Assembly: GCA_964016885.1 (NCBI GenBank)
Contig: OZ024763.1
Coordinates: 1,488,001 to 1,552,000, forward strand
Length of the DNA: 64,000 nt
Direction: 5' to 3'
From: Eledone cirrhosa
Taxonomy: Eukaryota
The translations under genes were made by a program, and so were the position numbers. This document shows positions 54,960 through 58,676 of this stretch, piece by piece. Every line of letters starts with the position of its first letter. Position 1 is the stretch's first letter. Below the pieces are notes generated by a model, which was not told where the DNA came from, did no database searches, and saw nothing but the letters and a program-made list of their open reading frames with translations.

Positions 54960-55682
54960 TTATTTTTTAACATTATTTTCTATTTTCTTGTTAATTACTT
55001 ATCGTTAAGTCTGTTGTTAATGAGCTTGGTGTTATATCTGGATAATTAATTAATAAATCATTTACGATATTAATTTGTGATATTGATGTTGTTGTTGTGG
55101 TGGTATAATATTTTATTACTGTTTCAGTGAATCGGAATTATTACTCAAACACGTTTGTAGAATTATAAGTATGAATAATTATAATGAAGCTGGTTAATTG
55201 GTAAAGTCGTTAGAACGTCAGATAGAACACCTTGTGGTATTTATTCTGGCTTTCTGAGATCTGAGTTCAAATCCTGGGACACCATAACTTTGACTGACTT
55301 CTTTATAATCCTAATACGCGAGACAACAGATCTTTGTCATGTCTGGGAGATCCTTAACTACCCCTTCATTAATTACTTGGTCTATATAGACCTATCCAAC
55401 CCTTGCTAGTAAGGAAAGTGGATGTTTAAACGATAATGATGCGATGATGATGATTGTTTAGACAGCTGTACTATATATACCCTGTAAACAAGGGCCTTGT
55501 TTCAGTAGGGGGGTACCAGGGGACAAGCCCCCCCCCCCTACTTTTTCAAACGTATGTTTTATTTTTTTATTTTTTTGTTTATTTGATATAATAAATTCTT
55601 TTTAAGCGTATTTTTTCTTTTATTTGAACTTCATTTGAGAATATAAAATTTAATTAGTGTAAAATTTTACTTCTGTGGGTGC

Positions 55683-56182
55683 CACACCATCCAGGCCGAA
55701 ACAAATGAGGTCATGTAGGTGTCACGACAAAAAAAAACACAGTCCACGCTGTAATGTGGCCGTGTAGGCAACATGGTAAAAACCTCCTAGCCCCACAACT
55801 GTAAATGTGGTTGGTGTTAGGAAGGGCATCCAGCTGTAGAAAACCTGCCAGACAGTCCACGCTGTAATGTGGCTGTGTAGGTAACACGGTAAAAACCTCC
55901 TAGCCCCACAACTGTAAATGTGGTTGGTGTTAGGAAGGGCATCCAGCTGTAGAAAACCCGCCAGACAGTCCACGCTGTAATGTGGCCGTGTAGGCAACAT
56001 GGTAAAAACCTCCTAGCCCCACAACTGTAAATGTGGTTGGTGTTAGGAAGGGCATCCAGCTGTAGAAAACCCGCCAGACAGTCCTATGCGAGCAAGACAA
56101 CCACTCTTGCCTCAAGTGGGAAAACTCCCGTCCAAACCCATGCAAGCGTGGAAGATGGACGTTAAACGTTGATGATGATGAT
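55683..56182 (+). mobile_element. RTE-like 3'UTR with ~3 internal tandem copies
   Basis: Repeated cagtccacgctgtaatgtggc...gaaaaccc blocks. Confidence 0.7.
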
Positions 56183-56542
56183 AGGGTCCGAGACAAGCAC
56201 TATAAGCAATACTAACATCCTCCTTTAAGAATCAACAAATGTTGGTTTGTCCCCCCTCACATATTTAAGGCAAACGAGGCCTCTGCCTGTAAGTCAGCAA
56301 ATTTGTAGCCATTAGAACATCAGAAAATATATCATATTCTTTCTGGTACTTTACACTCTGGGTTCAAATCTTGGGTCGGTTTGACTTGGATTCTTGAATA
56401 ATTCTATAAGTCATAGAATTATTCAAAAGTAAAATATATATATTAGAAAGTGAGGTTTTTTTTACAAAATGAAAAATAACCGAGGTGTCCTACACGAGTG
56501 AAAGTATAAAGAAAAAAACCACAGACCCTCCATCTCAACTCA

Positions 56543-56580
56543 CCTTTTGAAAAGCAGAAGAACTGCGAAACCGGTAAAGG
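56543..56580 (+). ncRNA. 38-nt minimal hammerhead, U3-A8 variant
   Basis: cctt-TTGAAAA-gcag-aagaa-ctgc-GAAA-ccgg-TA-aagg; all three helices perfect. Confidence 0.8.
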
Positions 56581-56649
56581 AACCAAATAAATATATATAT
56601 TTTAAAAAAAAATAAGACTTCAGTTGCATTTTCGATTTCATCTCTTTTT

Positions 56650-56702
<53 letters not shown>

Positions 56703-56783
56703 CAAAAGGGATATCCAGGAAAAACTTGAACTGTTAATAAGATCTCCTTCCTGGATATGTCAATATTTATAAAACAAACTTTG

Positions 56784-56844
56784 TAATTTATCTGATGAGA
56801 GCGTACCAAAGTTTTGGTACTCTTGAAATATATATAATAGAATA
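56784..56844 (+). ncRNA. Type I hammerhead, family C-like
   Basis: taatttat-CTGATGA-gagc-gtacc..ggtac-tctt-GAAA-tatata-TA-atagaata. Confidence 0.75.
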
Positions 56845-56884
56845 AATATGGTTTTATAAATATAGTTTCCATTTATTAATATCG

Positions 56885-56925
<41 letters not shown>

Positions 56926-57175
56926 ATTTTTTTTTTTTTTTTTTAAACGATCGACTTTCGTCAAATCGGACCGAGGAAACAATGTTTCCATTGGTCTTTC
57001 CAATTGCTAATACTATCTATCGGTCGCAACTCCAGGTAGAAGGAGCAACATGAAATAAAGTGTCTTGCTCAAGGACATAACGCATCGCCTGGTCTGAGAA
57101 TTGAACTCACAACCTCACGATTGCGAATCCAATACAGCTTCATATATATATATATATATATACAACACGCCTTCA

Positions 57176-57208
<33 letters not shown>

Positions 57209-57212
<4 letters not shown>

Positions 57213-57585
57213 TGGTAAACGGAATAGAAAATGCTGACAAATTGTTCACAGTTGAAAAATGGTTTAATTAGGAATAAAAGAGTATTAGTGATTAGTATTC
57301 AGTATTAGTGGTTAGTATTCAGTTGTGGTTTTAAGTTTTTAAGTTTTTACCGGTTGCGCATTTCTAAATGCTTTTCAAAAATAATTTTGAGATAGCAGCA
57401 CGGACACTCTATCTCAAAATTATTTTTGAAAAGCATTTCGAAATGCGCAACCGGTAAAAACTTAAAAACTTAAAACCACAACTGAATACTAACCCATACA
57501 ATCACTAATACTCTTTTATTCCTAATTAAACCATTTTTCAACTGTGAACAATTTGTCAGCATTTTCTATTCCGTTTACCAATATA
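57209..57585. mobile_element. Long fold-back element with two U3-A8/GCAA hammerhead-like motifs (57345-57381 minus, 57423-57459 plus)
   Basis: ~170-bp arms; ttt-TTGAAAA-gcattt-cg-aaatgc-GCAA-ccgg-TA-aaa. Confidence 0.75.
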
Positions 57586-57620
57586 TAACAACTTGTGTGT
57601 TACACCTCTATTCTTTTAAC

Positions 57621-57659
<39 letters not shown>

Positions 57660-57829
57660 GTGGGGGAGGCATGAATCCTGATTTTACTAATTGACACGCC
57701 GATAGCACCTTACTCCAGTAAACAATACAGCTGGGAGACCCTTTCAGGAACTCCTATGTCTGCTGGACACACAAACAGAAGGACATATGTTTTTTTTCTC
57801 CTGCCAGCAGCATATCCTAAAATTGAATT

Positions 57830-57917
57830 TCATCTGAGGATACCGTTCTCTTAACAACAACAAATGCATGAATTACATCTTGATTGCATGGGAGAACCAT
57901 TGAAATAATTTTAATGA
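57830..57917 (+). ncRNA. Degenerate hammerhead-like motif
   Basis: tcat-CTGAGGA-tacc-gttctc...gagaac-catt-GAAA-taattt-TA-atga; mismatches in stems II and III. Confidence 0.4.
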
Positions 57918-57968
57918 TTAAACGATTTATGTAACATCAGCATCTTTATTATTTATATATATATATAT

Positions 57969-58172
57969 AACGAAGGAAATGTGGTAAGGAACCAGGTGGA
58001 CCATAACGCACCAAAGTACTCAATACTTAGGGTAGTAGAGTGGGTAATAGGAACAAGTAAGACCCCGACGGCTGAGCTCAAGCCGTTTCAACGGCTAATT
58101 CTGTGAATTAATTCTCAGAATTAGCCGTCGAAACGGCTTGAGCTCAGCCGTCGGGGTCTTACTTGTTCCTAT
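57969..58172. mobile_element. Family A fold-back element (copy 3)
   Basis: Same ends as 108-301 and 6317-6528. Confidence 0.75.
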
Positions 58173-58192
58173 ATATATATATATATATATAT

Positions 58193-58439
58193 ATTGTTAT
58201 ACTTTGGGAGGGTCATGTTGCCAATAAGAAACACACGCACCAGTCGCTTTCACTCCAATTTATTATAAATTAAATTATAAATTTAAAAATTTATAAATTT
58301 CCGGTTGGTGCGGTTGTGGAACCAACCAGAAATTTATAAATTTTTAAATTTATAATTTAATTTATAATAAATTGGAGTGAAAGCAACTGGTGCGTGTGTT
58401 TCTTATTGGCAACATGACCCTCCCAAAGTATAACAATAT
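58193..58439. repeat. Near-perfect ~115-bp-arm fold-back next to (TA)n
   Basis: Two mismatches between the arms. No complete ribozyme core seen. Confidence 0.8.
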
Positions 58440-58567
58440 CGGTTTCAACACGTTTTCAGATAAAGAATCTTGCTAAACAAATTCAGAAACAAAATATATA
58501 TATATATATATATATAGTAAAAGAGTGAAGAATAGCGTGATCAGCTGTACAATAGGGTTTATTTAAA

Positions 58568-58676
58568 GTATTAACAATCGTTTCATTAGTCAGGTGTGTC
58601 TAAAAATTGCTGATCGCTAGAAGCCATATCACTCGATTTTAATTACACTTGATACCCAACCAAATCATCAGAATAC
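58568..58676 (-). ncRNA. Hammerhead with ~80-nt stem II domain
   Basis: gtatt-CTGATGA-t-ttggttgggt...acctgactaa-t-GAAA-cgattg-TT-aatac. Confidence 0.7.

Follow-up and report, generated by a model that had tools for sequence, protein, structure and literature searches.

Two questions are raised by positions 56543 to 57459 of the window (the whole 64-kb stretch of DNA that was analysed): whether the short motifs that carry a UUGAAAA box beside an ACCGGU palindrome are hammerhead ribozymes, and whether the C found at position 13 in one family of them is a trait of that family or the mark of a decayed copy. The motifs are read here as minimal type-I U3-A8 hammerheads, likely in 3′ stubs of Penelope-like elements, with an abundant family at 57 kb in which C13 is fixed and cleavage is predicted to be slower but retained; this composite reading is favoured with modest confidence.

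Motifs were sought with a descriptor consisting of a [CT]TGAN[GA]A core, at least four consecutive stem II pairs, GNA, stem III and at least two stem I pairs, which admits canonical and swapped cores alike. Four matches were obtained in the 64-kb window (8059 and 57378 on the minus strand, 56547 and 57426 on the plus strand), and all of them were the motifs singled out in the preliminary description, which had correctly reported UUGAAAA for CUGANGA together with an ACCGGU stem III. The excess over shuffled sequence expected there was also found when checked inside the window: 100 block-wise dinucleotide shuffles gave a mean of 0.22 matches and a maximum of two (0 of 100 reached three), and each of the 100 gave no match when a 6-nt palindromic stem III was demanded. 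Four of the six ACCGGT sites in the window, which is AT-rich, contains many microsatellites and is crowded with dispersed repeats resembling those known from octopus genomes, belong to UUGAAAA hammerhead motifs. No hammerhead family was among the 61 Rfam matches at E values up to 10 in the region 56400–57600, nor among the best 150 of 584 matches window-wide; the Rfam matches were sub-threshold ones of miRNA type only, sitting on palindromes and TA repeats.

The motif at 56543..56580 (plus strand) is a U3-A8 minimal type-I hammerhead with A13, identified by descriptor match, covariation and dimer fold. It comprises a 4-bp stem I (56543–46/56577–80), the core (56547–53), a 4-bp stem II (56554–66), GAA (56567–69) and the palindromic stem III (56570–75), with a predicted cut after 56576, and the minimum-energy fold of two copies is the dimeric hammerhead (−22.5 kcal/mol). 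The pair at 57 kb lies in an inverted repeat (57206..57587; arms 57206–57395 and 57409–57587, spacer 13 nt), the near-perfect arms of which (180–190 nt) are distinguished by a single loop base and an indel of 11 nt; a (TA)n tract adjoins the left arm, and a short TA run closes the right one. The right arm carries a U3-A8 hammerhead with C13 at 57448 (57423..57459, plus strand) and the left arm a C13 hammerhead with the family-majority loop 2 (57345..57381, minus strand), so that the C noted earlier at position 13 of both arms is indeed present in both. Each has a stem I of three A-U pairs, a 5-bp stem II with a 4-nt loop, and GCA. The third U3-A8 minimal hammerhead (8017..8064, minus strand) is more distant and has A13, a 5-bp stem II, four of five stem I pairs (one mismatch) and GAA; the minimum-energy fold of two copies is not the hammerhead dimer.

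Because the motifs at 57378 and 57426 are arms of one inverted repeat, the independent motifs number three, not four. The earlier count of three stem I/II sequences thus stands, and their description as unrelated does not: homology links the motif at 57426 to that at 56547, the two agreeing at 75% over 60 nt (E 6e-5), and their upstream flank by itself outscores 99.9% of shuffles. The sister-family stub that holds the 56547 motif (56520..56652, plus strand) reaches its 3′ limit at a (TA)n tract, and its upstream flank is homologous to 57399–57417; the likeness of the 3′ tails compared between families was not significant. Covariation on both strands of stem II was seen across the three independent motifs at pair 2 (C-G/C-G/A-U), pair 3 (A-U/A-U/U-A) and pair 4 (G-C/U-A/G-C), and stem I pairs likewise change on both sides. 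The 3-8 pair in core box 3-9 is Watson–Crick (U3-A8) in all four motifs; the G10.1-C11.1 pair and stems I and II are also in place (stem I being weak in the C13 family), as is a palindromic stem III suited to dimers (computed ACCGGU self-duplex −8.3 kcal/mol). G12-A13-A14-A15.1 and U16.1-H17 are present in 56547 and 8059. Anatomy and excess over chance together confirm these as genuine minimal type-I hammerhead motifs; the 57-kb family, with C13 in both arms and family-wide, is a hammerhead variant and not a canonical member. A further UUGAAAA box at 55480–55560 (minus strand) precedes a stem II of 10 bp, GAAA and a stem III of 5–6 bp that is nearly palindromic, with a poor stem I; it may be a monomer-type U3-A8 variant or a chance product inside a G-rich hairpin repeat.

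Canonical C3-G8 motifs were found by looser scans in at least five places in the window (13467 and 37838 on the minus strand; 31437, 56792 and near 30890 on the plus strand), and the genome therefore carries C3-G8 and U3-A8 cores alike. One of them (56787..56841, plus strand), in which stem II is long but imperfect and an AT palindrome serves for stem III, belongs to a different family and is sited between the U3-A8 motifs. The matches at 30890, 31437, 37838 and 56792 form a canonical-core hammerhead-like family: a T-rich 5′ flank is common to its members, stem II is long and imperfect, and stem III varies. At 13432–13473 (minus strand) lies a clean minimal hammerhead of the canonical kind, in which stem I has 5 bp and the palindrome AGTACT makes up stem III; its computed dimer is the hammerhead fold.

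The U3-A8 core itself has precedents. It is described in the Cercyon Penelope-like elements of Schistosoma, with about 1,300 hits and with UUGAAAA printed for S. mansoni(4) (PMC4209133), and as a natural variant, called active, in phage and environmental hammerheads (PMC3088659); a finding that speaks against activity comes from one saturation study, in which rescue of the 3-8 pair is reported for the C-G to G-C swap only, the other double mutants remaining low (PMC9901934). The preliminary description was right to regard U3-A8 as a compensatory substitute for C3-G8; its rarity was overstated, as judged from the two former sources. U3-A8 in Penelope hammerheads is already published, and the fixation of C13 is the new part. 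No natural C13 hammerhead family was found in the portion of the literature searched; the study of Lünse et al. 2017 (RNA Biol 14:1499), which reportedly treats variant Penelope hammerheads, lay outside that search and may include such variants. No position-13 substitution is mentioned in the supplementary text (figures excluded) of Perreault et al. 2011, and no matching consensus in the supplements of PMC8557442 and PMC13282606, a search that left the octopus repeat library aside. A pattern scan of viral and metagenome contigs returned three viral and at least 120 metagenome loci, and no relatives of the motifs were among the matches listed; of these 123, five had at least four stem II pairs (three G13, one A13, one U13 and no C13) and were taken as background.

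Position 13 was followed through the family in four public sequencing runs, aligned to 57396–57618 at 80% likeness, with differences reported from 2%. Run X1 contributed 1666 contigs, X5 26 contigs and X22 4289 reads, with a depth of about 2,360 at position 13; the one contig from X11 fell outside the motif. Three studies and two organism labels stand behind the informative runs X1, X5 and X22, and no RNA run was listed among the runs carrying the sequence. Read depth is not copy number, for which reason the family is described as "abundant" only; most reads and contigs were placed at 95% likeness or more to the window copy. At position 13, no base other than C reached 2% in X1, X22 or X5: all C>A places (4, 6 and 4 per run) and C>T places (5, 7 and 5) were matched to entries, none of them 57448, and no C>G places were tallied. 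Neither C3 (57426) nor G8 (57431) reached 2% in X1 or X5, where every T>C or A>G place was traced to another site; in X22, three such places (one T>C, two A>G) fall within the seven least-supported entries, which carry no listed position. The contigs lose rare variants, and recruitment at 80% leaves out distant subfamilies such as 56547. The proposal that a whole lineage uses the swapped core is supported for the 57-kb family; for the 56547 and 8059 families it draws on a single copy apiece.

Variation inside the motif was restricted to loop 2 at 57438–57439 (in X22, among the entries listed), that is, to two of four loop 2 sites and 0 of 33 stem and core sites. In the tail, 15 of 128 sites were variable in X1 and 23 of 128 in X22 (one-sided Fisher test against stem and core, p 0.027 and 0.003), and over the same read span 9 of 68 (p 0.024); these p-values are modest and post hoc, and palindrome repair or the recruitment of reads at 80% identity could produce them. 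The invariant run 57440–57476 extends 17 nt past the end of the motif. Two common deletions of 8–9 nt directly after the motif correspond to one short-repeat unit and spare U16.1, A17 and stem I. Since bases other than C stay below 2% at position 13, only loop 2 varies in the motif and the tail varies freely, C13 is supported as a family trait and not the mark of a decayed copy. Of the two options entertained earlier, the lineage-specific one thus gained support from all three runs, and the dead single copy is rejected on the same data. A single mutation copied by the inversion was likewise considered as the source of C13 and is ruled out by its family-wide occurrence in reads and contigs. The depth of X22 falls about ninefold upstream of 57418–57420 and again over 57528–57549, with heterogeneous loose ends, whereas neither abrupt drop is present in X1; the drops may reflect sites where truncation is favoured, or AT tracts of variable length.

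The carrier was proposed to be a retroelement, and this is likely on anatomical grounds: the motifs appear to sit in 3′-end stubs of Penelope-like elements. No Penelope reverse transcriptase or GIY-YIG domain was found by Pfam in 109 of the 116 non-repetitive frames of at least 55 aa in the window. The stubs are merely about 130–190 nt long, and an ORF with RT and GIY-YIG upstream of a pLTR is absent from the window, so that the identity of the element rests on anatomy. The sole match above cut-off, a reverse transcriptase at 19283, is far from the motifs; it is of LINE type and spans two overlapping frames (19283–21297, plus strand, RVT_1 E 3e-31). Metazoan Penelope hammerheads are characterised by a short palindromic helix III, G10.1-C11.1, the U3-A8 variant and opposite-strand pairs 100–700 bp apart, the palindromic helix being read as a sign of dimer activity, which is low in vitro (PMC4209133). 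Inverted 5′-truncated copies and (TA)n targets are known from Penelope-like elements (PMC8557442). At 57206–57587, a 5′ truncation appears to be accompanied by an inverted 5′ copy. In other copies of the family, common sequence extends upstream beyond 57399 (30 X1 contigs, agreement 0.79; in X5, the last 20 letters are identical), which identifies the palindrome centre as a truncation point. Exits into TA repeats at 57587 (781 reads in X22, 39 contigs in X1) fit a dispersed, high-copy family that has a definite 3′ end. We infer that 57206–57587 is the 5′-truncated 3′ stub of a retroelement joined to its inverted copy. A head-to-tail direct tandem of the motif, as in non-LTR retrozymes, was not found in 55500–58600. 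A (TA)4+ tract lies within 170 nt downstream of all six motifs tested (background 0.25); this proximity is weak evidence because TA tracts are equally near upstream, at 33–213 nt. Other long palindromes of different families (12920–13170, 58191–58439, 58047–58172, 1750–2085 and 27785–27961) lie mostly beside TA repeats and possibly stem from the same process of truncation plus inversion. A 123-bp tandem satellite forms two further arrays (9680–11640 and 24011–25450, about 90–94% identical).

The proposed mode of action is as follows. Where a transcript holds two copies in tandem, their self-complementary ACCGGU segments would base-pair and thereby complete stem III. U3-A8 would take the place of the tertiary pair C3-G8, and cleavage of the RNA would follow position 17, probably aided by the element's protein. 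Truncation at the 5′ end with inversion on insertion at (TA)n would yield the palindrome. The G8-A13 sheared pair is a ground-state feature of the minimal hammerhead crystal structures; in the weakest step of the scheme, C13 may have spread because the pace of transposition was not set by cutting and because this pair had already gone with the change to A8. That A8 relaxes position 13 by the loss of the sheared pair is a conjecture drawn from these structures. Changes of A13 are reported to inhibit 10–100-fold, more mildly than changes of C3, G5, G8, G12, A14 or A15.1 (PMC4075628). The best reading of the C13-family hammerhead is that of a slowed ribozyme still under selection.

The main rival is that these are indeed Penelope-type stubs, and that a master copy gained C13 and was amplified with a wholly inactive motif, which we consider improbable, if not by far. 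The fold of the C13 family is marginal, with a weak stem I, a competing hairpin in about half of the ensemble and a probability of 0.54 for G10.1-C11.1; unlike that of 56547, the minimum-energy fold of two C13 copies differs from the hammerhead, and the computed secondary structure is indifferent to base 13. Hammerhead-dead mutants of an anole Penelope element, the hammerhead of which requires protein, still insert in vitro (PMC11167929), and Naiad Penelope elements multiply without canonical hammerheads (PMC8557442). The family is also young, as the likeness of most reads and contigs to the window copy indicates, and may have been amplified from an inactive motif. Against this rival, subfamily variants fall in loop 2 and the tail and spare the stems and core, which suggests selection on the fold after C13 had arisen. 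A bolder version of the slowed, selected ribozyme, in which an active triple-variant core (U3, A8, C13) drives a high-copy Penelope subfamily, with A8 freeing position 13 so that this base is not invariant, is a little more doubtful still. Much less probable is a MITE or foldback DNA transposon at TA, with the hammerhead shape incidental or a captured relic: near-perfect arms at TA runs, further TA-flanked palindromes and the missing Penelope ORF would fit, but the related motifs 56547 and 8059 are single-armed, family copies run past the palindrome centre with common sequence (X1 and X5), and stems covary among families. The least probable account, a non-catalytic role as a promoter element or protein-binding site of the element, draws on the 17-nt excess of the invariant run and on a second 6-nt palindrome that C13 creates beside ACCGGU and that pairs as strongly (−8.3 kcal/mol each), and is opposed by the confinement of variation within the motif to loop 2, as a hammerhead fold predicts.

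A fixed and amplified natural C13 core provides a ready test of whether Penelope hammerheads are needed for transposition or are passengers. If the motif cuts, the invariant GAAA box needs revision and epistasis between positions 8 and 13 becomes testable; if the triple-variant core is active, GAAA descriptors overlook whole ribozyme families in animal genomes. If it does not cut, a high copy number has been reached with a dead ribozyme, which would support dispensability in vivo. The U3-A8 part is ordinary, and the fixation of C13 in a family adds a small point that can be tested.

Among the closest known systems are the Schistosoma mansoni Cercyon hammerheads (Cervera and De la Peña 2014, PMC4209133), which share the type-I topology, U3-A8, G10.1-C11.1 and a palindromic helix III, and which also occur mostly as solitary copies or opposite-strand pairs with an inferred dimer requirement. 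Stem III is a 6-nt ACCGGU palindrome here and a 4-nt one in the Schistosoma motifs, and the window motifs are without the extra base that those carry between A9 and stem II. The 56-motif alignment of that paper, in which no cephalopod appears, has GAAA throughout the second core box, whereas one family here has GCAA. The core variants of Perreault et al. 2011 (PMC3088659) likewise include natural U3-A8 covariation, described there as active; the variants listed (U3-A8, A6C, the insertions A6a and U13a, U15.1-A16.1 and U10.1-U11.1) hold no position-13 substitution, unlike the C13 family. In the 8059 motif, stem II opens with an ATG (8051–7983, minus strand), as described for the Poseidon element of Anolis carolinensis; its frame ends after about 22 codons by eye. 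Poseidon (Frangieh et al. 2024, PMC11167929) resembles the present stubs in that its pLTR hammerhead lies close to the insertion's 3′ end, and its 3-8 pair was demonstrated by mutation and rescue. It combines canonical C3-G8 and A13 with a full ORF and measured activity, whereas the window motifs are known from sequence.
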